From contig CAZBQC010000002.1 of the NCBI GenBank assembly GCA_964494015.1, positions 1 through 49,941 of the forward strand: a DNA stretch of 49,941 nucleotides, read 5' to 3'. The translations under genes were made by a program, and so were the position numbers. The notes under the pieces were generated by a model, which saw nothing but the letters and a program-made list of their open reading frames with translations, was not told the origin of the DNA and made no database searches. Of this stretch, positions 16,055-29,619 are shown one piece after another. The DNA is from an uncultured Muribaculaceae bacterium (GTDB taxonomy: Bacteria; Bacillota_I; Bacilli_A; RF39; UBA660). Numbering within the stretch: the stretch's first letter is position 1; every line of letters begins with the position of its first letter.

Positions 16055-16657
16055 ATGGATAAAAGGAATAGTAACACTATTAATTATTACAATGAAAATG
16101 CTAAGTCATATTTTGATTTGACAGTTAATGTTGATATGAGTATACTATATGGTAAATTCTTGCTTCATCTTCCTAATCATGGATATATCTTGGATTTTGG
16201 ATGTGGCTCTGGAAGAGATAGTAAATACTTTATCGATCACGGCTATAAGGTTAGAGCTGTTGATGGCTCAATCAAATTATGTGAATTAGCATCTTCATAT
16301 CTTGGTCAAGAAGTTGAATGCATGAATTTTTCTGATTTTAATGATCAAAGTCTTTATGATGGAGTATGGGCGTGTTCATCAATAATTCATTTACCTCAAA
16401 ATGAATTAATTGATACTTTGAAAAGGATTAGTCGGTCGTTAAAAGATGATGGAGTTGTTTATGTTTCTTTTAAAAGTGGAATTGGTGACGAAATAATTAA
16501 CGGTCGATATTTCAACTACATGACTAAAGATGCTTTTATTCATTTGTTAACTTATTTTCCGGAGTTAAAGTTAGTTGATATATTTGAAAATTTATTGACT
16601 ATCAATTGTAATGAAGCAAGACACTGGAATAACTTTGTCTTACGAAAAGGAATTTGA
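16055..16657 (+). CDS. Class I SAM-dependent methyltransferase
   Basis: Motif I ILDFGCGSGRDS, then acidic VRAVDGS and GVWACSSIIHL. Extended -10 TGATATAAT at 16024-16032. Confidence 0.75.
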   Translation: MDKRNSNTINYYNENAKSYFDLTVNVDMSILYGKFLLHLPNHGYILDFGCGSGRDSKYFIDHGYKVRAVDGSIKLCELASSYLGQEVECMNFSDFNDQSLYDGVWACSSIIHLPQNELIDTLKRISRSLKDDGVVYVSFKSGIGDEIINGRYFNYMTKDAFIHLLTYFPELKLVDIFENLLTINCNEARHWNNFVLRKGI

Positions 16658-16719
16658 TATTTTTACTATTGAGGATAGTAATCATATTAAAAATTAATAA
16701 AAATTTTAAGGAGGTAAAG

Positions 16720-17166
16720 ATGGGAAAAGAAAAAATAACTTTTGAACAAATGTTGTCATCGATAATGGTATTATATTCTAACAATATTAATGATTATGAC
16801 TTGGATCAGATAATAAAGGATTTTCTTACTAAGTATAATGATAATAATGATAAATATGAATTAGTATTTGAACCTTTAAGATATTTGTCTCATTTTGTTG
16901 AGGAAAGAGGAGAATACTTTAGGTTCAAAGAGGGTTTTGAATTTAATACTGATATTAGTAAAACAATTCAATGGACTAGACCATGTACTTTAGAAGAATA
17001 TTTAGTTATAGTAGCTGGTAGAGAAGTATTTAATGACATGTATGAATTAATATTGGAAGCAAAGGAAGATGAAGTAATAGCTGAATCAGAGGAACAAAAA
17101 GTTTCAGCTGAACTTTTCGAAGATCCGTATTTTAAGAGATTAAGTAAGTTTTACGGTGGAAAATAA
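16720..17166 (+). CDS. Hypothetical protein
   Basis: Start set at MGKEKITFE (AAGGAGG 6 nt upstream) rather than the track start at 16654. Confidence 0.5.
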   Translation: MGKEKITFEQMLSSIMVLYSNNINDYDLDQIIKDFLTKYNDNNDKYELVFEPLRYLSHFVEERGEYFRFKEGFEFNTDISKTIQWTRPCTLEEYLVIVAGREVFNDMYELILEAKEDEVIAESEEQKVSAELFEDPYFKRLSKFYGGK

Positions 17167-17189
17167 TGCATTTCCACCGTAAAATTTTT
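17149..17189 (+). terminator. Intrinsic terminator; upstream boundary of operon 1
   Basis: 14-bp stem TTTTACGGTGGAAA / TTTCCACCGTAAAA followed by TTTTT. Confidence 0.8.
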
Positions 17190-17273
17190 GCAAATATTTT
17201 ATGAAACTATCTTCATTTTGGTAGGTTTTTAGATAAAAAACAGCACTTTCTTTAGTAAAATTATTAATAGAGG

Positions 17274-17301
17274 TTGACTTTTTAAATGAAAATCGTATAA
17301 T
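17274..17301 (+). promoter_or_regulatory. Putative promoter of operon 1
   Basis: TTGACT at 17274-17279, a 16-nt spacer, and a consensus TATAAT at 17296-17301. It lies ~120 nt upstream of the small precursor ORF. Confidence 0.55.
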
Positions 17302-17419
17302 AGTTTACAATTATATGGAGACATTATCCTCTTAGAATTAACTTTTTAACTAGTCTATGTAATTATTTGTGTTATAGAATTCGTAAGAATTTTATATAGA
17401 ATAAGAAAGGATGGTTTCA

Positions 17420-17518
17420 ATGAAAAATTTTGAAAAAAAAGTGAATCCAACAATTTCTGTTATCAAAAATAACGGCACAAAAGTTTGTATGGCTGTTGGA
17501 ACATGTCATTGTAACTAA
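17420..17518 (+). CDS. Unannotated 32-aa Cys-rich small ORF; candidate RiPP precursor peptide (MKNFEKKVNPTISVIKNNGTKVCMAVGTCHCN)
   Basis: ATG at 17420 preceded by AGAAAGGATGG. Lys/Asn-rich N-terminal half and a C-terminal CMAVGTCHCN with three Cys. TAA at 17516-17518. It sits immediately upstream of a radical-SAM/SPASM gene and is below the 60-aa cutoff of the ORF track. Confidence 0.65.
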   Translation: MKNFEKKVNPTISVIKNNGTKVCMAVGTCHCN

Positions 17519-17523
17519 TCACA

Positions 17524-17570
17524 CATAAAAGTGGTGTTGGCTATAACGCCGACACCACTTTTATGATTAT
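17524..17570 (+). terminator. Strong hairpin with a U-rich tail between precursor ORF and maturase genes (candidate leaky terminator/attenuator)
   Basis: 18-bp stem CATAAAAGTGGTGTTGGC / GCCGACACCACTTTTATG (one G-U pair), loop TATAAC, then ATTATT. GC-rich core GTGGTGTTGGC...GCCGACACCAC followed by TTTTATGATTATT. Confidence 0.65.
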
Positions 17571-18781
17571 TGAAAGGAGCATGTTGGTTGAACGCATATG
17601 TAAATAATGAAGTAGTAGTTGTAAACAACATCTTTGAAAATAAATTATTTATTTATAATAGAATTAAGCGAATAGATTATGATATAAACGAAGATACTTT
17701 TGATATTATCATGGATATAAAAAAGAACAATTATGAATTGGAACAATTAAAACAGAAATATGGAGAATATTTTATAAATCAATTGTTTGATTTGGAAATA
17801 TTGACACTAACACCTCAAAGTAATTCAATAAATGTTAAAAAAGTTGATAAACAGAATAATGTAAGAATTTTTGCTGAATTAACAGATAAATGTAATTTAA
17901 AATGCAAGCATTGTTATGGATCGTTTGGATATAAAAATAGTAATGAATTGGATTTAGAAGATTTAAAGTTATTAGTTGATAACGCAGCATTAAATGGTGT
18001 ATATCAATTTGATTTGACTGGCGGTGAGCCATTTATATATCCATGTATTGAAGAGTTACTTTGCCACTTATATAATGCTGGAATGTTAGTAAGAATTTTT
18101 ACTAACCTAACCATTTTCGGTAAAAAACAGTTAGATATGATTCTAAAATACGGAGTAAAAAATATTATTACAAGCATAGATTCTTCAAGAAAAAGAATTC
18201 ACGAGGAATTTAGAGGACAAATAGGGTGTTTTGATAAAACAGTCAATTCCATAAATATTTTAAAAGAAAATAATGTGGATGTAACTATTAATACAATGAT
18301 AGGAAATCATAATAAGGATCATGTTGACGAAATTGTAAAGTTCATTGAAGAAATGGAAGTTAAAAGTGTATTAGATGTTATTGTACCCGAAGGTAGGGCA
18401 ATCGCATTAAATGAAGATACATTTGAATCTGCTAATATAATAAAGAATATTTATAGAAATCATTATAGTATTATTGATCCTAATGCAATTTCAATTAATT
18501 GTGGAATAGGAGATCGCTTTGTTTATTTAAAATCTGATGGAAATATATATATTTGTCCAAGTTTAATTTCCAAGGAATACAAAATAGGCAGTATAAAGGA
18601 TTTTGACACTAATGAAATTTGGAGGAAATTATCAAATAAATTTGGGTATTTATGTTGTAAAAAATACAAAATAGAATGTGGTAAATGTAAAGGTGGATGT
18701 AGAGCAAGAGCCCTAAAATTAAATGGAAACATTAATCAAAAAGATGATATTTATTGCATTGTTAATGAGATTGAGAGTTAA
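17570..18781 (+). CDS. Radical SAM/SPASM peptide-modifying enzyme with an N-terminal PqqD/RRE-like extension
   Basis: CNLKCKHCYG (CxxxCxxC), LTGGEPF, and a C-terminal SPASM-type Cys cluster (CGIGDRFVYLKSDGNIYICPS ... CCKKYKIECGKCKGGCRARA ... DIYC). About 95 aa precede the rSAM motif. The likely true start is the in-frame TTG at 17588, 9 nt after AAAGGAG. Confidence 0.8.
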   Translation: MKGACWLNAYVNNEVVVVNNIFENKLFIYNRIKRIDYDINEDTFDIIMDIKKNNYELEQLKQKYGEYFINQLFDLEILTLTPQSNSINVKKVDKQNNVRIFAELTDKCNLKCKHCYGSFGYKNSNELDLEDLKLLVDNAALNGVYQFDLTGGEPFIYPCIEELLCHLYNAGMLVRIFTNLTIFGKKQLDMILKYGVKNIITSIDSSRKRIHEEFRGQIGCFDKTVNSINILKENNVDVTINTMIGNHNKDHVDEIVKFIEEMEVKSVLDVIVPEGRAIALNEDTFESANIIKNIYRNHYSIIDPNAISINCGIGDRFVYLKSDGNIYICPSLISKEYKIGSIKDFDTNEIWRKLSNKFGYLCCKKYKIECGKCKGGCRARALKLNGNINQKDDIYCIVNEIES

Positions 18782-18782
18782 T

Positions 18783-19601
18783 ATGAAGAAATATTTAGGA
18801 ACGGAAAATGCAACATTGGAGTTAAAATTTTTTAATATAAGTAAATATTCGCAATTTTTTAAAAAAAATATAGATTTTATAATATCACAAAATTTTCAGA
18901 GAATAATTTTATATATATCTGATAGTGAAATTGAAATGCTTATTTCAGAAATTAAAGACTTTTTCAATGATACAAATATATTAATAATAATTTATAGTTA
19001 TTTTAAAGAATATAAAGAATTTTCCCTACCAGACAATGTTATATTGGTTAATGAAAATGAAGAAGTTTATGTTGTCGCAAATAAAATATTTAATAGTATT
19101 AAGTTAAATAAAAAATCAGTAGATGCCATTATCCGGTATGTAAAAGATAATAATAATATTATTATTGATGTTACGCCAAATATAAATCACATATCTGAAT
19201 TTAATGAATTGATAACTACTTTAATGACGCACTTGGATGGGATAGCTATTAATTTTTCTGGTTTGATAATTCCTAGTTTCTTGATAAGAGAACATCCCTG
19301 TAATGCTTATTTATGCGATGGTTGGAAGTGTGGTCTACAAATAAGTTGCTTGCCAAAACATATATTAATAGACGATGATTTTAATGTATATCCACATGAT
19401 TTAGTTTATTCGAAATTAAAAATTGGTAATGTAACATCAAATAAATTACAAAATGTATTAGAATCATATCTTGTTTCTGAAGAGTATAAAAATTTTCAGA
19501 TATATAACAAAAATGTATTCATAAAAAAATTAGCAAATTATCCTTTTGATTATATGCCCTTACTGGAATATATAAGATCAGAGGCAGAAAATGATAAGTA
19601 G
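18783..19601 (+). CDS. Radical-SAM-like accessory protein lacking the CxxxCxxC motif but keeping a Cys-rich SPASM/twitch-like segment
   Basis: 272 aa from the ATG at 18783, 1 nt after the previous stop. No CxxxCxxC anywhere. The C-terminal third has HPCNAYLCDGWKCGLQISCLPKHILIDDDFNVYPHD...KIGNV, which resembles the auxiliary-cluster region of SPASM enzymes. Confidence 0.45.
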   Translation: MKKYLGTENATLELKFFNISKYSQFFKKNIDFIISQNFQRIILYISDSEIEMLISEIKDFFNDTNILIIIYSYFKEYKEFSLPDNVILVNENEEVYVVANKIFNSIKLNKKSVDAIIRYVKDNNNIIIDVTPNINHISEFNELITTLMTHLDGIAINFSGLIIPSFLIREHPCNAYLCDGWKCGLQISCLPKHILIDDDFNVYPHDLVYSKLKIGNVTSNKLQNVLESYLVSEEYKNFQIYNKNVFIKKLANYPFDYMPLLEYIRSEAENDK

Positions 19602-20499
19602 AGCAAATATTATTTTAACTCACAATTGTAATTTGAGATGTTTACATTGTTATATAGATGCTAAAACCAGTAGTGAAAATCAAGAAGAAATTTTAACTAG
19701 AACAAAAAAAATTATTTATCAATTATATAAAGATAATGTTAAAAGTATAATGTTTACTGGTGGGGAATGTATGTTATTTAGGCCACTACTAGAACTAATT
19801 AGGTATGCTAAAAATTATCAAATGTCAGTAACGATTTTTACAAATGGAATGATATTTAATAAAGAAATTTTTGATTTAGTTGATGCCGTAAACATTAGTT
19901 TAGACGGAACAAAAGAAATTCATAATTATATTAGACAAAATAATTATTCTTATGATAATGTAGTTAAAGTTTTGGATTATTTAAAAAAAATCGATAAATA
20001 TACTACTATTCAAATGACGATAAATAACTTGAATGTTAATGATTTGGATTTTTTATCTCCGTTATTAATGCAGCACTTAAATGTTAGAACAGTGAAATTA
20101 GTTTTTATATCATCAGATGGTAGAGCAATAGAAAATAATTTAGTACATGAACATACACATATTGATAAAATATATGATAAAATTGATACTCTTTATGAAG
20201 CCACGAAATATCATATTCAATTTGTTCCAAGTATTATTAATAAATATGATTTTGAAAATTATTATGTAAGTGGAGTATTGGATTTTGCTCTATGGATAGA
20301 TGTTCCGGAAAATACTTATTATTTTATAAGTAATAAATATATGCCTAGTCATACATTGGATGATTTTAATATACAAGAAGCAAATAGATGCAATAACAAA
20401 ATTAAACAAATTATCTCAGATAGCAAATCTTTAATAATTAAAGATGAGTATATTAATTTGGAAAAAACACTTTCTGAATTAATTAAGGGAGAATTATAA
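19591..20499 (+). CDS. Radical SAM enzyme (core domain only, no SPASM Cys cluster)
   Basis: THNCNLRCLHCY and FTGGECMLF. Only one further Cys occurs in the C-terminal 200 aa. It overlaps the previous gene by 11 nt. Confidence 0.75.
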   Translation: MISRANIILTHNCNLRCLHCYIDAKTSSENQEEILTRTKKIIYQLYKDNVKSIMFTGGECMLFRPLLELIRYAKNYQMSVTIFTNGMIFNKEIFDLVDAVNISLDGTKEIHNYIRQNNYSYDNVVKVLDYLKKIDKYTTIQMTINNLNVNDLDFLSPLLMQHLNVRTVKLVFISSDGRAIENNLVHEHTHIDKIYDKIDTLYEATKYHIQFVPSIINKYDFENYYVSGVLDFALWIDVPENTYYFISNKYMPSHTLDDFNIQEANRCNNKIKQIISDSKSLIIKDEYINLEKTLSELIKGEL

Positions 20500-22442
20500 T
20501 GAATGAAAAGCCAGTAATGACATTAGGAATATTCGCTCATGCGAATGCCGGAAAAACTACTATAACAGAGCAATTATTGTATCATACCAATGTAAAAAAG
20601 ACTCGTGGCAGAGTAGACAATGGTGACACTACAACAGATAATTTAAAAGTAGAGCGTGAAAGAGGTGTATCAGTCAGAGCTTCTTTAGTGACTTTATCTT
20701 TGAGTGATAGGAAAGTACAATTAATTGATACTCCAGGACATGTAGATTTTTCTGCTGAAGTAGAAAGAGCAATCAGTGTACTTGATGGTGCAATTTTAGT
20801 AGTATCGGGTGTTGAAGGTGTTGAATCACAAACACAAGTGATATGGAAAATATTAATGGAAAGGAATATTCCAACATTAATATTTATTAATAAAATGGAT
20901 AGAGTGGGTGCTGATTATGATAGAGTAATTGCTGAAATGAAAGCTAAATTAAGTACCAATATACTTCCTATAGTTAAAGTAAAAAAAGAACAGGATGGTA
21001 CGCTTTCATATAAAGATGTGAAAATTGAAAATATAATAGAAGATATAGCAAGTTATGATGATAATATTTTAGAAAGATATTTGAACGATGAAAAAATATC
21101 AAGAGAATGGTTAGAAGAGCAAGTCAAAAGAATGGCACAAACTGGATTATTATATTTAGTTTATGGTGGAAGTGCATTGCTAGATGAAGGTATGTATCAT
21201 TTAATTAATGGAATATCATCCTATTTACCTGTAGCATCAAAATCAAAATCGTCAGATTTTACTGGGTATATATATACAGTAAAAAGAGATGCTGGAGTTC
21301 GAGAGTTATATGTAAAAGTATTAGAAGGTGAATTAGAAAACAGATATGAGTTTATCACTGATCATGGTTTAAAACAAAAAGTTAGAACAATAACAAAACT
21401 AGAAGGAACGAAACGAACAAGAAGCGAAAGATTAGAAACCGGAGAGATAGGTATTATTACTGGACTTGATGCAAAATGTGGAGATCTTATTGGTAAACCA
21501 ATTCCTAATTTTAAACCTTTTTCATTTGTTAATCCATTATTTCATACTTCTATAACTACTAATAGCAATAGATTACATGAGTTGGTAACTGCTCTTGAAA
21601 TATTAAACGATGAAGATCCATCATTGAATTTACAATACAATAATAATACTGGACAAATTAGCATTGATTTAATGGGAAATTTGCAATCAGAGATAATTGC
21701 AAATATAATAAAGGATAGGTTTCAAATTGATGCAGTATTTTCTGATCCAATAATAATTCATCGTGAAACTCCAATATCTATTGGAAAAGGTGAATGTACT
21801 TTTGATAGGGTATCAGCAGTTGAATTTGAAATTCAGCCTTTACCAATTGGAAGTGGATTACATTACTCATCAAAAATTTCAACCGACTATTTGTTTGCAA
21901 AATACCAAAAACAAATTGAAAAGTTAATAAGAAGTTATTTAAAACAAGGTTTGTATGGTTGGGAAGTTACTGATGCAATGATAACATTAATAGGTGGTAA
22001 GAGCGACTCTGTTTGTTCAGATCCATCACACTTTAATGTGATTGTTCCTCTTGCTTTTATGAGAGCCTTAAAAAATGCTGAAATGCAATTAGAAGAACCA
22101 ATGATGAAATATGAAATAACTGTACCAAACGAAAATATTAGACAAGTATTATCTTCCGTTTCATCATTAGGAGTTAAATATGAAAAAATAATAACTTTAT
22201 CTGAAAACTCCATAATTCCAGGTAATGCACCATTGTCCAGTATAATTGATTTACCGACAATAATAACTAGATTAACCGGTGGTCATGGCAGTTTAATAAA
22301 GAAACCAAATGGTTATCAACCACGTCCAAATATAGATTTGATTGAAAAGAAAGTTATTGGTAGAGATCCAAGAAATGAAATATTATTTTTAATGGATATG
22401 GGGTGCAGTATGGAACATATTGATAGGTCGAAAAGGAAATAA
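20499..22442 (+). CDS. Translational GTPase of the Tet(M)/Tet(O) ribosomal-protection / EF-G-like family
   Basis: 647 aa, which is ribosomal-protection-protein length and shorter than EF-G. G1 AHANAGKTT, G2-region GRVDNGDTTTDNLKVERERGVS (compare Tet(M) [22 protein letters not shown], recalled from memory), G3 DTPGHVDF, G4 NKMDR. The start ATG overlaps the preceding stop (TAATG). Confidence 0.75.
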   Translation: MNEKPVMTLGIFAHANAGKTTITEQLLYHTNVKKTRGRVDNGDTTTDNLKVERERGVSVRASLVTLSLSDRKVQLIDTPGHVDFSAEVERAISVLDGAILVVSGVEGVESQTQVIWKILMERNIPTLIFINKMDRVGADYDRVIAEMKAKLSTNILPIVKVKKEQDGTLSYKDVKIENIIEDIASYDDNILERYLNDEKISREWLEEQVKRMAQTGLLYLVYGGSALLDEGMYHLINGISSYLPVASKSKSSDFTGYIYTVKRDAGVRELYVKVLEGELENRYEFITDHGLKQKVRTITKLEGTKRTRSERLETGEIGIITGLDAKCGDLIGKPIPNFKPFSFVNPLFHTSITTNSNRLHELVTALEILNDEDPSLNLQYNNNTGQISIDLMGNLQSEIIANIIKDRFQIDAVFSDPIIIHRETPISIGKGECTFDRVSAVEFEIQPLPIGSGLHYSSKISTDYLFAKYQKQIEKLIRSYLKQGLYGWEVTDAMITLIGGKSDSVCSDPSHFNVIVPLAFMRALKNAEMQLEEPMMKYEITVPNENIRQVLSSVSSLGVKYEKIITLSENSIIPGNAPLSSIIDLPTIITRLTGGHGSLIKKPNGYQPRPNIDLIEKKVIGRDPRNEILFLMDMGCSMEHIDRSKRK

Positions 22443-22451
22443 AGTGTTAAT

Positions 22452-23579
22452 ATGATAGATATAAGATTAAAAAAAATGGCCGAATCAATTATTAAATATT
22501 CACTTAATATAAGACCAGGGGAAAAAGTTTTAATTGATTCCAGTAAAAATTGTAGTGAAATGATTAAATATTTAATTGAATTAATTGCAAATAATGGTGC
22601 AATTCCATTAGTAATTATTAAAGAAAATGATATTCAAAGAAGCTTAATAATGAACGGTAGTCAAGAACAGTTTGAAATTATGAGGAAGCACGAACAAATG
22701 TTACTAGAGTGTGTTGATGTATATATTAATATGATGGATTCGGATAATTGTTATGATATGTCTGATATTCCAAGTGATAAACGGTCACTATATCAGCAAT
22801 ATTATTTCAAGCCAATTAATTTTGAAGTAATTATGCCAAAACTTAGATGGATAACTGTAGACTATCCATCCGTGTCATCAGCACAACAATTTGGCATGAG
22901 TACAGAAGCATATGAAAAATATTTCTTTGATGCTGTCAATACAGATTATAAAGAGTTACATACCGCAATGATACCTTTAAAAAACATACTTGATAAGGGA
23001 AGGCATGTTCAAATAACATCTCCAGATACAACAAATTTATCTTTTGATATAACCGAATTTAAAGCTGTGATTTGTAGTGGTAAAATAAATATTCCTGATG
23101 GAGAGGTGTTTATTGCTCCAGATTTAAAATCATTAAATGGAACAATTAAATTTAATGTTCCATCTCGTTACTCTGGAAAGCAATTCTCGAACATTTTTCT
23201 TACATTTGAGAATGGTAAAGTAATTAGTCATAATTCAGATACGAATAGTTCTTCACTAACCTCTTTATTGGATATTTCTGAAGGCAATAGATATGTTGGA
23301 GAATTTGCTATAGGAACAAACCCAAACATTGATACACCAAGGACAAACATTTTATTTGATGAAAAAATATTAGGCTCTATTCATTTAGCCTTAGGAAATA
23401 GTCATAGTTTAAGTGACAACGGAAATGTTGGATCAATTCATTGGGATATGGTTAAAATGTTAACTCCTGAATATGGCGGTGGAAGTGTTATTATTGATGA
23501 TCGATTGATTCAAGAAAATGGAATATTTATTCCAGAAGAATTAAAGTCCCTACATTCTAAAAAATTAGTTAGGAAATAA
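22452..23579 (+). CDS. M29-family aminopeptidase (AmpS/PepS-like)
   Basis: IKYSLNIRPGEKVLI, INIPDGEVFIAP, GEFAIGTN, IHLALGNS and IHWDMV follow the thermophilic-metalloprotease M29 motif order. Confidence 0.75.
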   Translation: MIDIRLKKMAESIIKYSLNIRPGEKVLIDSSKNCSEMIKYLIELIANNGAIPLVIIKENDIQRSLIMNGSQEQFEIMRKHEQMLLECVDVYINMMDSDNCYDMSDIPSDKRSLYQQYYFKPINFEVIMPKLRWITVDYPSVSSAQQFGMSTEAYEKYFFDAVNTDYKELHTAMIPLKNILDKGRHVQITSPDTTNLSFDITEFKAVICSGKINIPDGEVFIAPDLKSLNGTIKFNVPSRYSGKQFSNIFLTFENGKVISHNSDTNSSSLTSLLDISEGNRYVGEFAIGTNPNIDTPRTNILFDEKILGSIHLALGNSHSLSDNGNVGSIHWDMVKMLTPEYGGGSVIIDDRLIQENGIFIPEELKSLHSKKLVRK

Positions 23580-23629: not shown

Positions 23630-24103
23630 ATGGAATTAGTTCAAATTAAACAAAAAGATTTAGAAATATTAGAAAGGTTATTGCAGTTATATTTACACGA
23701 CATTAGTAAATATTTTCCAATAGAATTTGAGGAAAATACAGGGTTATATCTGTATGATGGTTTAGACAAATATTTTGATGGTTCAAAAAATTATGCTTAT
23801 TTTATAAAATTAGAAAAAAAAATAGCCGGCTTTATTTTGGTTGATTCTAATGAAAATGAAAAAATTATTCAAGAAATGTTTGTTTTAAATCATCATAAAA
23901 ACAAAGGTATTGGTAAATTAGCTGTTTGCAAAGTGTTAGAGAATAGTAAAGGTAATTGGATTATAAAGTCCTTACCGAATTCTGAACCTGCTGAAAGATT
24001 TTGGGATAGAACAATAAAAGAATATACTAATAATAGTTATCATGTTGAACATGTTGGTAGATATAATAGAGCTGTTTTTACTTTTAATAATAGTGATAAA
24101 TAA
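23630..24103 (+). CDS. GNAT-family N-acetyltransferase
   Basis: 157 aa. Acetyl-CoA-binding region QEMFVLNHHKNKGIGKLAV and C-terminal AERFWDRTIKEY. Strong RBS AAGGAGG. Confidence 0.7.
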   Translation: MELVQIKQKDLEILERLLQLYLHDISKYFPIEFEENTGLYLYDGLDKYFDGSKNYAYFIKLEKKIAGFILVDSNENEKIIQEMFVLNHHKNKGIGKLAVCKVLENSKGNWIIKSLPNSEPAERFWDRTIKEYTNNSYHVEHVGRYNRAVFTFNNSDK

Positions 24104-24104
24104 T

Positions 24105-25295
24105 ATGGAAGTATATTTAAGAAGAAAGAGTGAGGAATTAGAGTTTTTGTCTGGTTTTATAGATAATGAATTTCAGCATGCTCGTTTGATTGCACCAGCC
24201 AATGTTATATCAGTAAAAGAGCAAATAACTAAAGAGATTAGAAATAAAAACAGTATAAAATACTATCATGAATTAACAAATAAAACTAAAATTGGATTCA
24301 ATGATATATTTGAATACAACTATACATATGAACGATTTAATGGTTTTATAAAAATTCCATATTTTGCGAATGATTTTTATCATATAGAAAAAAATGTTAT
24401 CACAGAAACTTATTTTTCTAATTGTGGTATGAGTTCCATAGTTTCGCTTTTATCATCAATAATTTCCGCAAATGATTGTAGTGTGGACTTAATGTATGAG
24501 GAAACTTACTTTGAAACAATAAAGTTTCTTAGTTCGATAATAAAAGTAAAAAATCAAGATTTTTTTCTTTATATTGATTCAATAGCAAGTAATTTTAGCT
24601 TTCTTGATGATTTTAATTCTGATAATTATCTTGGAGTAATTATTGATACAACTTGTTTTGTTGGTGAAGATTATAAAAAAATGATAAACTATATAATATC
24701 GACAGGAACACCATGTGTTTTAGTACGTAGTCATACTAAAATAGATTTACTTGCAACAGAATACTCACATATTGGATCCGTTTCATTTATTTATCCGAAA
24801 ATTGAAAATAATAAAACAAAGAGAGTAAAAAAAGTTGAAACTGATTGTAAACATTTAATAGGTGTTTTTGGAGCTTGTTTACCTCCAGAAAAGTTTCCAA
24901 CTTTTATATTAAATAATAAAATAAAAACATTAAATAATAACAGAATAAAAATTGTTAATGAAAACAATAGTTTATTCTTTTCTATTTTGAAAGATTATAA
25001 AATTAATGTGATTTTACCGAATCATAGGCAATTCTGCTTGATATATTTAAAAACCATTTCAGGTACATTAGAGGATTTAAAACAGAAAATATATAATTTT
25101 TGCAAAGAAAATGAGAAGGAATTTCTAACTTACTCAGCTGTAAGTTTTGGTTTTGATTATATTTCCATTGACTGTTATCAAAATTTTGTGGATTCAACAT
25201 TTAAAATTAGGGTATGTATAAATGATTTTCCAAAATTAGTTATAGAAAGCTTCGCTTACAAATTTATTGAATTTTTAAAAATAATTGATGACTAA
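24105..25295 (+). CDS. Hypothetical protein; possibly a divergent fold-type I PLP enzyme (Cys/Met-metabolism family-like)
   Basis: ATG 1 nt after the GNAT stop. The order of FSNCGMSSIVSLL, YEETY, VIIDTTCF and VLVRSHTKIDL parallels the SSGmaAi / Y.gT / vDnTfatP / hSaTKyl motifs of cystathionine synthase/lyase-type enzymes. Weak similarity judged by eye only. Confidence 0.35.
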   Translation: MEVYLRRKSEELEFLSGFIDNEFQHARLIAPANVISVKEQITKEIRNKNSIKYYHELTNKTKIGFNDIFEYNYTYERFNGFIKIPYFANDFYHIEKNVITETYFSNCGMSSIVSLLSSIISANDCSVDLMYEETYFETIKFLSSIIKVKNQDFFLYIDSIASNFSFLDDFNSDNYLGVIIDTTCFVGEDYKKMINYIISTGTPCVLVRSHTKIDLLATEYSHIGSVSFIYPKIENNKTKRVKKVETDCKHLIGVFGACLPPEKFPTFILNNKIKTLNNNRIKIVNENNSLFFSILKDYKINVILPNHRQFCLIYLKTISGTLEDLKQKIYNFCKENEKEFLTYSAVSFGFDYISIDCYQNFVDSTFKIRVCINDFPKLVIESFAYKFIEFLKIIDD

Positions 25296-25617: not shown

Positions 25618-26487
25618 ATGATGAAAATAAAAAAGCTTCCAATGGATGAATTAAGGATATCGATTACTTCAAGTTGCAATATGAAGTGTTACTATTGTCA
25701 CAATGAAGGAAATAGATTAACAAGCAAACTAGATATTAATGATATAGATTCATTAATAAACGCTGCAATGAAATTTGGATTAAAAAGTATCAGATTGACT
25801 GGTGGAGAACCAATGATCTGTAATGATATTTTCAGTATTTGTAGCATGATAAAAGAAAAATATAATTTAAAAATAGGTATAAATACTAATGGCATCGAAA
25901 TAGATAAAATATTAGAATTGATTGATTCTAATTTAATTGATAGAGTGGTAGTAGGAATAGATTATTTCAATAATAAGATATCTAAGAATTCACCAGTTGG
26001 TATATGTTCTAAAGATATTTTAAGAAATATTGAATTAATCAAAAAAAGAGGTATTGGTGTTACTATTGCAACAGTTTTTGATAATGATTATAGTGATATA
26101 GAACAGTTATTTAATTGGGCTTTAACACATGACATTAGAATAAAAATTTTGGAAAAGATAGATGATGAACAAAGTGATGTTACATCTCCAGCTTATATAA
26201 AAATTAGAGATCAAATTATAGATAAATATAATTTAATACCTAAAATAGATCCTATTTTTAATGAGTTACATGGTTATCTTGGTGGAAAGAGAGTTGTTTC
26301 TTTTTTTCATTCTCATTGTCGAATAAGGGAGTGCAGATTATGTAAAAACATGCACTTGAGAGTCATGAGTAGTGGGAAGCTAAAGCCTTGTTTGCTAAAT
26401 ACGGAAACAGAAGTTGATTACAAGATAGGAAATGTTGAAAAAAATATTGTTACAGCTATTGATTTATTAGGGATACCACCTAAATAA
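25618..26487 (+). CDS. Radical SAM enzyme, MoaA-like (GTP 3',8-cyclase family architecture)
   Basis: LRISITSSCNMKCYYCHNEG, IRLTGGEPM, and a C-terminal second cluster region CRIRECRLCKNMHLRVMSSGKLKPCL. No other molybdopterin genes are in the window. Confidence 0.55.
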   Translation: MMKIKKLPMDELRISITSSCNMKCYYCHNEGNRLTSKLDINDIDSLINAAMKFGLKSIRLTGGEPMICNDIFSICSMIKEKYNLKIGINTNGIEIDKILELIDSNLIDRVVVGIDYFNNKISKNSPVGICSKDILRNIELIKKRGIGVTIATVFDNDYSDIEQLFNWALTHDIRIKILEKIDDEQSDVTSPAYIKIRDQIIDKYNLIPKIDPIFNELHGYLGGKRVVSFFHSHCRIRECRLCKNMHLRVMSSGKLKPCLLNTETEVDYKIGNVEKNIVTAIDLLGIPPK

Positions 26488-28444: not shown

Positions 28445-28729
28445 ATGAATAAAAGAAAACTATGGAGTAAAAAAGAAAAAATTAGAGTTGTTAGAAAAGT
28501 GTTAAGTACGAATAAATCCCTATCGACAATTGCTAAAGAAGAATCTCTCGATGTGAAAATTATTATTAGATGGGTAAGAAAGTATAATAATGAAGGAGAA
28601 AATGGTCTATCATCAAATAGGAATAAGACTTTAGCTAAGAGGACCACTCAAGAAAAAACACTAGGTTGGGAGCTGGAAAATATATTATCAAAAAAAGTTT
28701 ATTGGCTGAAAGAGGGTGTTCAAATTTAA
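28445..28729 (+). CDS. IS3-family transposase OrfA (HTH)
   Basis: WSKKEKIRVVRKVLSTNKSLSTIAKEESLDVKIIIRWVRKY is a typical IS3 OrfA helix-turn-helix. Confidence 0.8.
   Translation: MNKRKLWSKKEKIRVVRKVLSTNKSLSTIAKEESLDVKIIIRWVRKYNNEGENGLSSNRNKTLAKRTTQEKTLGWELENILSKKVYWLKEGVQI
28690..28697 (+). other. Programmed -1 ribosomal frameshift heptamer A AAA AAA (G)
   Basis: In the orfA frame the codons read TCA AAA AAA GTT. A -1 slip gives ...KKSLLAERGCSNLKV, which is the orfB frame. Confidence 0.7.
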
Positions 28730-29619
28730 AAGTTGCTTCCTCTCTTAAATTAAAGTATGCCATTATTCATCAACTTAGGAAGAATTATTCTATTAAATTT
28801 TTGTGTGATCGTTTAGATATCAATCGTAGCAGTTATTATAAGTGGTTAAAAAGCGATTGTGGTCACAGGCAAAGAAAAAAAAGAGAGAAATTAATTAAAC
28901 TTATCAACGTTATTCATGAAAACTATCCAACTTACGGATATCGAAGAATTGGATTTTTAGTTAGAAAAAGATTTAATGTTTCTGATCAATACATATATAA
29001 ATGTTGTTCATACTTAGGAATAAAGTCAAAAGTTAAAAGAAATAAGTCGAGAAATAAACCTTTAGGCATCAATAAGTATGATAATCTTGTCAATAATAAG
29101 TGGAATACTTTAAGGCCTTTAGAAATAGTAATATCTGATACCACTACTATTAATCATTGCACAGGCGAGTACAATTTAACTTTATATATTGATGCATTCA
29201 ATAATGAGATTATTAGCTATGATCTAACTGAGAAGGGACATGAAGAACTTTCTTCTCATCTTAAAGCTTTGACTAGATTTATTAAGATAAAAAAGAGTCG
29301 AGGTTACTTTAATATTAGAACGATTCTTCATACTGATCAAGGAGCAATATATGCTTCTGATGTTTTTAATGCTATTTGCAAGAACAATAATATTATTCAC
29401 AGTATGTCGAGGTTGGGTAAACCGACTGACAATGCCAAAATAGAGGCGATTAACGGTTGGATTAAACAAGAAATGGAAACAGACTTCCATTTTTTTTATG
29501 TACAAAATATTGCTCAGTTCATTAAAAAATATGTTAACTACTACAATACTGAGCGACCATCCTATAAGTTAGGTAATAAGACACCTCTTGGGTATAGGCT
29601 TGATTGTCATTTTAAATAA
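28696..29619 (+). CDS. IS3-family transposase OrfB part (DDE/rve integrase core), expressed as an OrfAB fusion
   Basis: YGYRRI, VISDTT (D), LHTDQGAIYAS (D) and GKPTDNAKIEAINGWIKQE (E). Confidence 0.8.
   Translation, partial: SLLAERGCSNLKVASSLKLKYAIIHQLRKNYSIKFLCDRLDINRSSYYKWLKSDCGHRQRKKREKLIKLINVIHENYPTYGYRRIGFLVRKRFNVSDQYIYKCCSYLGIKSKVKRNKSRNKPLGINKYDNLVNNKWNTLRPLEIVISDTTTINHCTGEYNLTLYIDAFNNEIISYDLTEKGHEELSSHLKALTRFIKIKKSRGYFNIRTILHTDQGAIYASDVFNAICKNNNIIHSMSRLGKPTDNAKIEAINGWIKQEMETDFHFFYVQNIAQFIKKYVNYYNTERPSYKLGNKTPLGYRLDCHFK

Follow-up and report, generated by a model that had tools for sequence, protein, structure and literature searches.

Introduction

The described systems closest to the locus reported here are those of the sactipeptides (SkfA/SkfB, SboA/AlbA and the streptosactin pair StsA/StsB) and of the thioether maturase CteB. 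In these systems a small precursor gene, encoding a core with Cys residues, is located directly 5' of a gene for a radical S-adenosylmethionine (rSAM)/SPASM enzyme that bears an N-terminal RiPP recognition element (RRE; RiPP, a peptide synthesized on the ribosome and modified after translation), and a hairpin lies between the precursor and enzyme genes. The same layout, with an RRE-like domain in the place of the RRE and with SkfB and CteB as the best matches of the enzyme, is found in a 49,941-nucleotide (nt) stretch of contig CAZBQC010000002.1, hereafter called the window, around a small open reading frame (sORF) of 32 codons at positions 17420-17518 of the forward strand. Judging from its relatives in other genomes, we estimate a probability of about 0.8 that this sORF encodes the precursor ('A' peptide) of RiPPs that are modified by rSAM enzymes and form an undescribed family, with an invariant Cys-His-Cys (CHC) close to the C-terminus.

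In several respects the locus departs from the sactipeptide pattern. Instead of several Cys donors that face acceptors in a hairpin, the family has only two invariant Cys, both in a C-terminal CHC, its cluster in the window lacks an ABC (ATP-binding cassette) exporter and a C39 protease, and it adds a pseudo-rSAM protein, a second rSAM enzyme, a Tet(M)-like GTPase and an M29 aminopeptidase, while the cores of a sister clade are free of Cys. The maturase is outside all of the sactisynthase families (AlbA, SkfB, StsB), with scores below the cutoffs. The ranthipeptides, or SCIFF peptides, with six Cys in about 45 residues (aa), are different as well, since the peptides of the window family have 2-3 Cys and no NCBIfam match, and the maturase scores 60 with the PapB model, the cutoff of which is 340.

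Streptococcal RaS-RiPPs, for example the NxxC peptides with a Cys-Asn beta-thioether and the WGK peptides, resemble the present family in their short precursor, tiny conserved motif and single rSAM/SPASM cross-linking enzyme, and the window peptide ends in Cys-Asn. On the other hand, the WgkB model gives a score of 87 against a cutoff of 650, there is no shp/rgg quorum-sensing regulator beside the window cluster, and half of the family has no such Asn but Ser-Ala. Pyrroloquinoline quinone (PQQ; PqqA/PqqE) and mycofactocin (MftA/MftC) likewise derive from a short peptide with a conserved C-terminal business end, with a peptidase in the cluster and no dedicated exporter; their rSAM/SPASM enzyme uses an RRE, to which an RRE-like domain corresponds in the window enzyme. 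There the targets are Glu/Tyr or Val-Tyr, compared with CHC here, and the maturase models score below their cutoffs. Moreover, the window cluster has no downstream cofactor-processing enzymes or client dehydrogenases, and instead has a GTPase of the ribosome-protection type. That GTPase is a full-length, five-domain protein like elongation factor G (EF-G), nearer to Tet(O) and Tet(M) than to EF-G, although it falls under the cutoff of the ribosomal-protection model NF012153 and its loop III tip is replaced. Otr(A), a self-resistance gene in the oxytetracycline cluster, offers a parallel for a GTPase gene of this kind inside a biosynthetic operon, with the difference that the window gene is linked to a peptide rather than a polyketide pathway.

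Results

The 32-codon gene and its local signals

The precursor peptide gene (17420-17518, + strand) starts at the ATG at 17420 and stops at the TAA at 17516-17518, and its product, translated directly, is MKNFEKKVNPTISVIKNNGTKVCMAVGTCHCN, with a leader beginning MKNFEKKVNPTISVIKNNG and a core ending CMAVGTCHCN. An earlier note, made from the letters of the sequence, had read start, stop and translation exactly in this way, and had pointed to a purine-rich ribosome-binding site. The latter is the Shine-Dalgarno site AAAGGATGG at 17406-17414 (+ strand), 5 nt 5' of the ATG, which has equivalents in the orthologous loci; the sequence AGAAAGGATGG terminates 5 nt ahead of the ATG at 17420. An alternative in-frame ATG at 17411 lies within the Shine-Dalgarno site and is unlikely to serve as start codon. 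As the earlier note also remarked, a 60-aa cutoff for ORFs misses this frame; if our reading is correct, what it hides is the key gene of the locus.

The top-scoring sigma-70-like promoter between 16600 and 20600 is TTGACT-16-TATAAT at 17274-17301 (+ strand), a consensus match only (11/12 positions) in a scanned region where promoter-like sites are in total no more numerous than expected from shuffled sequence. On the other side of the sORF, and ahead of the rSAM/SPASM gene, a hairpin (17524-17565, + strand; 18 bp perfect, dG -29.9 kcal/mol, z -7.7) begins 6 nt after the stop codon and is followed by a U-rich tract, UUUUAU. It was not flagged by a consensus terminator scan, and an Rfam search of 16600-18000 returned sub-threshold noise only. 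A hairpin was found 3' of the precursor stop codon in 10/10 loci examined (the window and nine others), with a sequence that differs from locus to locus and at a distance of 0 to ~19 nt from the stop. The element is likely a leaky terminator or a transcript-stabilising structure between the precursor and enzyme genes.

The DNA in this region has a GC content of ~28%, and nine ORFs of at least 20 aa overlap the 550 nt between 17100 and 17650. An sORF of 32 codons is on its own not beyond chance at this composition, and the case for a gene therefore rests on conservation.

A conserved peptide family with an invariant CHC

Orthologous contigs were taken from members of the rSAM/SPASM family, with identities to the window protein from 84% down to 35%; loci are referred to below by number (L081 and so on). 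The family is sharply bounded, with ~83 proteins at E <1e-50, after which the matches drop to ~1e-32. When genome contigs were scanned with a profile of the rSAM alignment, the matches listed were only relatives with 22-30% identity (L001-L080), picked up through generic rSAM motifs and uninformative for the present family.

All orthologous loci of sufficient length for a judgement have a peptide ORF with a Shine-Dalgarno site on the operon strand, mostly directly 5' of the rSAM/SPASM gene, and GGAGG or AAAGGA is found 5-10 nt ahead of the start. Altogether, ~30 distinct peptide variants of 28-42 aa were collected within the orthologous operon (rSAM/SPASM proteins 84% to 36% identical to that of the window), among them MKKINPTITVVEVKKNETCMAVGVCHCN, MNKQVKPTITVVTNNGNQSYMAVGVCHCN, MKEKKVVKPTITQVKVSDQKQFMAVASCHCSA, MKKETTKAVKPTISVVKANSSSFACASGTCHCSA and MNNETKSVPAISFITVEENDADIVLGDCHCSLD, as well as one with the C-terminal part ...VKKVKPVITVIKHSEIGKSTLTVGGCHCSA. 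A profile built from ten variants retrieved 28 further small proteins from a collection of 5.8 billion proteins, at E values from 4e-13 to 2e-5, and most of these were outside the profile.

In the alignment of the variants, P10, I12, C29, H30 and C31 (window numbering) are invariant. The leader is rich in Lys and has the motif P-x-I-[S/T], usually in the form K/N-P-T-I-S/T-V. From the Pro of this motif to the first Cys of CHC there are 19 residues in 25/31 variants, with a range of 18-21, and CHC itself is 1-3 residues from the C-terminus, followed by N, SA, SS, NT or SLD. Half of the family has Ser-Ala in place of the terminal Asn of the window peptide.

The first Cys of the window peptide (C23) behaves differently. 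Its position is occupied by C, Y, F or V or is absent, one clade has a Cys two residues nearer to CHC, the most distant clades have no extra Cys, and in 12/31 variants the two Cys of CHC are the only ones. The CxxxxxCxC pattern, by which the earlier note described the C-terminus, is accordingly not conserved as such; only the last two Cys and the His between them are. The search for homologues at syntenic loci that the same note had proposed did yield peptides, in which CHC is retained and the first Cys is not.

Several features speak for selection on the peptide rather than on the DNA. The CHC codons vary synonymously among loci (TGT/TGC, CAT/CAC, TGT/TGC), and the Ser that follows CHC persists whether its codon belongs to the TCA or to the AGT/AGC family. 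In an ungapped comparison of the window with its closest relative, L084, the ORF has an identity of 0.92 and the 200 nt upstream of it 0.54. Because CHC and the following Ser survive synonymous codon changes while the upstream DNA has diverged, selection acts at the protein level, and the sORF is almost certainly a real, conserved gene. Every comparative test agrees with the suggestion that its product is the substrate of the adjacent rSAM maturase or maturases: gene and enzyme occur together from 84% to 36% identity of the latter, and the peptide is divided into leader and core with a fixed spacing.

The rSAM/SPASM maturase

The gene 3' of the hairpin encodes an rSAM/SPASM peptide maturase of 397 aa with an RRE-like N-terminal domain (17588-18781, + strand; Pfam Radical_SAM 3e-23). 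Its ORF opens at 17570, and the likely start is the TTG at 17588, which follows a Shine-Dalgarno site. The sequence contains CxxxCxxC, C-x12-G-x4-C and further invariant Cys in the C-terminal domain, and its SPASM score in Pfam, 20.4 bits, is just below the cutoff of 21.5 bits. In an AlphaFold2 model (predicted local distance difference test, pLDDT, 92.4) residues 15-74 form three strands and three helices (beta3-alpha3), the layout of an RRE. The top matches of this model in Foldseek, with full-length alignments, are the RRE-containing enzymes SkfB, CteB and SuiB, and by sequence and fold taken together the best matches are SkfB, CteB, SuiB and PqqE. The RRE-like domain and these nearest folds also support the proposed role of the enzyme in acting on the sORF product.

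In addition to the PapB and WgkB scores given above, the maturase reaches 109 with StsB (NF045574; cutoff 625), 78 with AlbA (NF012164; cutoff 850), 74 with SkfB (TIGR04403; cutoff 300), 91 with MftC (TIGR03962; cutoff 265) and 83 with PqqE (TIGR02109; cutoff 381). By its sequence, it belongs to a known type of enzyme and is outside any curated NCBIfam or PADLOC family. In PADLOC, the three rSAM proteins exhibited only generic rSAM-core similarity to pVip (57-69 bits), and nothing specific was obtained for the other proteins.

The conserved operon

The gene set was defined by a tblastn matrix of the window genes against the orthologous loci. Identities range from 83 to 37% for the rSAM/SPASM maturase (17588-18781), from 78 to 25% for a 272-aa protein (18783-19601), from 82 to 29% for an rSAM enzyme without SPASM domain (19591-20499), from 85 to 41% for the Tet(M)-like GTPase (20499-22442), from 91 to 33% for an M29 aminopeptidase (22452-23579) and from 76 to 41% for a GNAT acetyltransferase (23630-24103). 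The partner genes all diverge together, and the genes after the hairpin are tightly packed or overlapping. In the most distant clade the precursor gene is directly 5' of the Tet(M)-like GTPase gene (L108:8576-8704; L109:13305-13412) and not of the rSAM/SPASM gene. With no aminopeptidase gene in L109 and none seen in L108, the constant core, as read from the sequences, consists of five genes: precursor, rSAM/SPASM maturase, 272-aa protein, rSAM enzyme and Tet(M)-like GTPase.

The 272-aa partner (18783-19601, + strand) has no Pfam or NCBIfam match. In its AlphaFold2 model (pLDDT 82.7) a partial barrel resembling that of rSAM enzymes carries an extension at the C-terminus, and HPCNAYLCDGxxC is found in the C-terminal half; Foldseek matched the model to AbmM (4e-4) and to SuiB (probability 1.0). 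We refer to it as a pseudo-rSAM protein because it has an rSAM-like fold and lacks the CxxxCxxC motif of the S-adenosylmethionine cluster. The family is rare, with 156 representatives among 1.84 billion proteins, and is present in all orthologous loci. Next to it lies the gene for the second rSAM enzyme, of 302 aa (19591-20499, + strand; Pfam Radical_SAM 1.5e-18), which has neither a SPASM nor an auxiliary-cluster domain. It is conserved in all loci, and its best match in the PDB is SkfB, over the core only.

The earlier note had counted two or three rSAM-type proteins as available for the peptide. The pseudo-rSAM protein is inside the conserved set, while the MoaA-like protein that could have been counted as a third maturase (25618-26487; 289 aa, 120 bits against a MoaA cutoff of 284) lies just 3' of the cluster and outside the set: it has no counterpart in any orthologous locus, and its matches there reflect rSAM-core similarity to the other rSAM genes.

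Two tailoring candidates accompany the core in most loci. One is the M29 aminopeptidase (22452-23579, + strand; 375 aa, Pfam Peptidase_M29 3.6e-48), and the other the GNAT acetyltransferase (23630-24103, + strand; 157 aa, Pfam Acetyltransf_1 1.3e-5), for which a tailoring or detoxification role is proposed and the gene of which is 5' of the precursor gene in some loci. In one distant cluster, a B12-binding rSAM protein (474 aa) and a 79-aa ORF follow the GTPase gene (L091:11415-12839); the former may provide an extra methylation step.

The conserved set does not extend to genes upstream of 17200, which are not kept with it in the orthologous loci. In the window, a 200-aa S-adenosylmethionine-dependent methyltransferase gene and an overlapping gene for a 170-aa protein without family match (16055-17166) are directly 5' of the promoter, and neither is conserved. 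The distribution of the clusters is patchy and mobile. A tyrosine integrase and an AAA_25 protein are encoded beside the cluster in L081 (3627-5888), conjugation genes (TrbL, PrgI, TraG-like, ArdC) flank that of L087 (1-5742), which is inside a conjugative element, and an IS3-type transposase (rve) gene is located downstream in the window (28666-29619).

The Tet(M)-like GTPase

The translational GTPase (20499-22442, + strand; 647 aa) is related to Tet(M) and Tet(O), with full-length scores of 318 bits for TetO and 294 bits for TetM, compared with 246 bits, in two stretches, for EF-G. It contains the Pfam domains GTP_EFTU, EFG_III, EFG_IV and EFG_C in a five-domain, EF-G-like arrangement with intact G motifs, and scores 527 bits with NF012153, under the cutoff of 775 bits. 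All CHC loci of sufficient length for a judgement contain the gene, with identities of 85-41%. Its proposed role is self-protection of the producer's ribosomes.

Accessory genes that follow the peptide tail

A 396-aa protein (24105-25295, + strand) is encoded only in the clade with peptides ending in CHCN; homologues, at 50-81% identity, were found only in L081-L086 (L084 among them) and L093. It has no match in Pfam, NCBIfam, PADLOC or the PDB. On account of the motifs NCGMSSI, DTTCF and RSHTK it was considered as a fold-type I pyridoxal phosphate (PLP) enzyme of Cys/Met metabolism, an assignment that is unproven: a PDB profile search was empty, and hhalign with E. coli MetB aligned only a 22-residue GMS motif, with a probability of 1.1%. 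The CHCSA clades have instead an extra protein of 67-71 aa and a second, unrelated rSAM/SPASM protein, 24% identical to the first (L087:9190-10531; L089:9205-10555). BLASTP revealed no similarity between the 71-aa accessory protein and the N-terminus of the maturase, and Pfam searches at E up to 10 with the maturase N-terminus, the 67-71-aa proteins, the pseudo-rSAM protein and the 396-aa protein gave noise only. Since the accessory genes follow the tail of the peptide (CHCN or CHCSA), the residues after CHC may themselves be modified.

A sister locus with Cys-free cores

In L092 (7080-11180; GCA_016841825.1, JAENYK010000004.1) there are four tandem small ORFs with a shared (F)NDLNPTIA leader and Pro-rich, Cys-free cores, for example ...EEPIIAPIISYPGIDY. 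Downstream of them are genes for an rSAM/SPASM protein (35-36% identical to that of the window), a pseudo-rSAM protein, an rSAM protein and a pump of the major facilitator superfamily (MFS), and no Tet(M)-like gene was found in this locus. Four tandem peptides with one leader and different cores are typical of RiPPs, and from its sequence L092 seems to represent another undescribed RiPP family, the second to use this recognition motif. Because L092 shares the N-P-T-I leader despite its different cores, the leader motif would be the recognition handle; and because L092 keeps the enzymes without the GTPase, the latter appears to be tied to the CHC product and not to the enzymes.

Discussion

We propose the following route for the CHC peptides. 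The hairpin, as a leaky terminator or stabiliser, would let the precursor mRNA exceed the enzyme mRNA. The RRE-like N-terminal domain of the rSAM/SPASM enzyme would bind P-T-I-S-V of the leader as a beta-strand, and the fixed spacer would bring CHC to the active site, where one or both of the Cys could be cross-linked, most likely, if SkfB and CteB are a guide, through a thioether to a nearby carbon; thioether chemistry is thus an assumption. The pseudo-rSAM protein and the 302-aa rSAM enzyme may, as a pair, install a second radical modification. The M29 aminopeptidase would then trim the unmodified leader, and the GNAT enzyme could cap or detoxify the newly exposed amine. Finally, the Tet(M)-like GTPase is proposed to shield the producer's ribosomes, which would make the mature product an inhibitor of translation that acts at the small subunit. 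Since the GTPase would protect these ribosomes, the product is probably a translation inhibitor; that the ribosome is its actual target is suggested by the gene content and is, in our estimation, possible but short of an even chance. Equally tentative is the full proposal that the CHC peptides are a new class of ribosome-binding, rSAM-modified peptide antibiotics of uncultured gut and rumen Bacillota, with a hitherto unrecognised clade of Tet(M)-like GTPases, a dedicated one in each cluster, as immunity proteins.

A number of observations weigh against parts of this route. Ribosome protection by the GTPase is inferred only from homology, and the tip of loop III in domain IV, with which Tet(M) reaches the tetracycline site, is altered: where Tet(M) and Tet(O) have YGLYYSPVSTP, the cluster family has a conserved sequence of its own, GGK[S/C]D[S/H/N]V[C/G]S[D/E]P, and YSPVS aligns with SDSVCS of the window protein. 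Such a change in the tip suggests another ligand. The gene set includes no transporter that is conserved across the orthologous loci, which is unusual for a secreted antibiotic. Regarding the enzymes, Pfam recognized no PqqD/RRE domain by sequence in the maturase N-terminus at E up to 10, and all of the curated NCBIfam maturase models score far below their cutoffs, for which reason the chemistry of the maturase is not transferable from a known family. Because the L092 cores are free of Cys, the maturase clade is not tied to Cys thioethers. The three conserved Cys of the pseudo-rSAM protein are absent in the L089 clade. Leader removal by the aminopeptidase cannot be universal, as its gene is absent from L109 and none was seen in L108, where the contig ends soon after the GTPase gene.

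Other explanations of the sORF itself have to be considered. It might be a chance ORF in AT-rich intergenic DNA where function is confined to the promoter, untranslated leader and hairpin of the rSAM operon, and the nine overlapping ORFs of at least 20 aa in 17100-17650, together with promoter-like sites no more frequent than in shuffled sequence, are what would be expected in that case. Homologous peptides down to E 4e-13 among 5.8 billion proteins, a peptide in every orthologous locus long enough to judge even though the intergenic DNA has diverged (0.54 compared with 0.92 for L084), and conserved Shine-Dalgarno sites leave practically no room for this explanation. Another explanation is a cis-regulatory leader peptide, modelled on the one that, with an attenuator, lies upstream of tet(M) on Tn916 or on the erm leader peptides: translation of the sORF would control the hairpin, and thereby read-through into the operon, and the peptide itself would have no function. 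The hairpin with its U-rich tail is 6 nt past the stop codon, presumably so near that a terminating ribosome could influence how it folds, it is present in all loci examined, and the operon does contain a Tet(M)-like gene, immediately 5' of which the sORF is found in L108 and L109. Attenuators, however, conserve regulatory codons, whereas here P-x-I and CHC survive synonymous changes at a fixed spacing; the distance from stop codon to hairpin varies from 0 to ~19 nt; the peptide tail co-varies with the enzyme content of the operon; and in the sister locus L092 four tandem peptides combine a shared leader with varied cores. We consider a purely regulatory sORF quite improbable, and note that regulatory and precursor roles are compatible with each other.

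Alternatively, the peptide could be the precursor of an intracellular cofactor or metal-binding molecule made from CHC, in the manner of PQQ or mycofactocin, and the GTPase would then have another translation-related role. The absence of an exporter from the conserved set would be explained, as would an invariant C-terminal part of only three residues, with the M29 exopeptidase as a possible means of setting free a very small product; the matches of the maturase, by structure and by sequence, include PqqE, and Cys-His-Cys would be a plausible set of metal ligands. Against a cofactor stands the lack of dehydrogenases or other client enzymes in the set, and with the maturase models for mycofactocin and PQQ the scores fall far short of the cutoffs. 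Furthermore, the co-diverging Tet(M)-like GTPase has no role in such a model, and patchy, mobile clusters (the integrase beside L081, the conjugative element around L087) fit an accessory weapon better. On balance a cofactor precursor is unlikely, and we favor the precursor of a rSAM-modified RiPP.

The peptide and its pathway seem not to have been described. Named relatives of the maturase are annotated just as 'radical SAM protein' or 'hypothetical protein' and derive from metagenome-assembled genomes of Bacilli, Clostridia and Paraclostridium. No curated family or named protein matched the peptide or the pathway, and in a search of full-text literature that included the literal peptide strings, with most subscription journals outside its coverage, nothing was found on the CHC peptide, and neither a Tet(M)-like gene nor an M29 aminopeptidase was encountered in an rSAM RiPP cluster. 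We regard the locus as a probable rSAM RiPP system in which the precursor family is new and the link to a GTPase of the ribosome-protection type is unusual and possibly without precedent.

The pathway belongs to uncultured gut and rumen Bacillota. If our proposal is correct, these bacteria would use a very small and sharp code for recognition and modification (P-x-I, ~19 residues, CHC) that would be easy to test and to engineer, and an unusual trio of enzymes, namely an rSAM/SPASM protein, a pseudo-rSAM protein and an rSAM protein without SPASM domain. With a Tet(M)-like GTPase in every cluster, a pointer to the target would be built in: by resistance-guided logic, these never-cultured bacteria are predicted to make a ribosome inhibitor. 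It would then be clear where one branch of the Tet(M)-like proteins originated and what its natural role is, and the CHC peptide would be the first peptide natural product associated with Tet(M)-like ribosome protection, its clusters forming a natural reservoir for the spread of such resistance genes.

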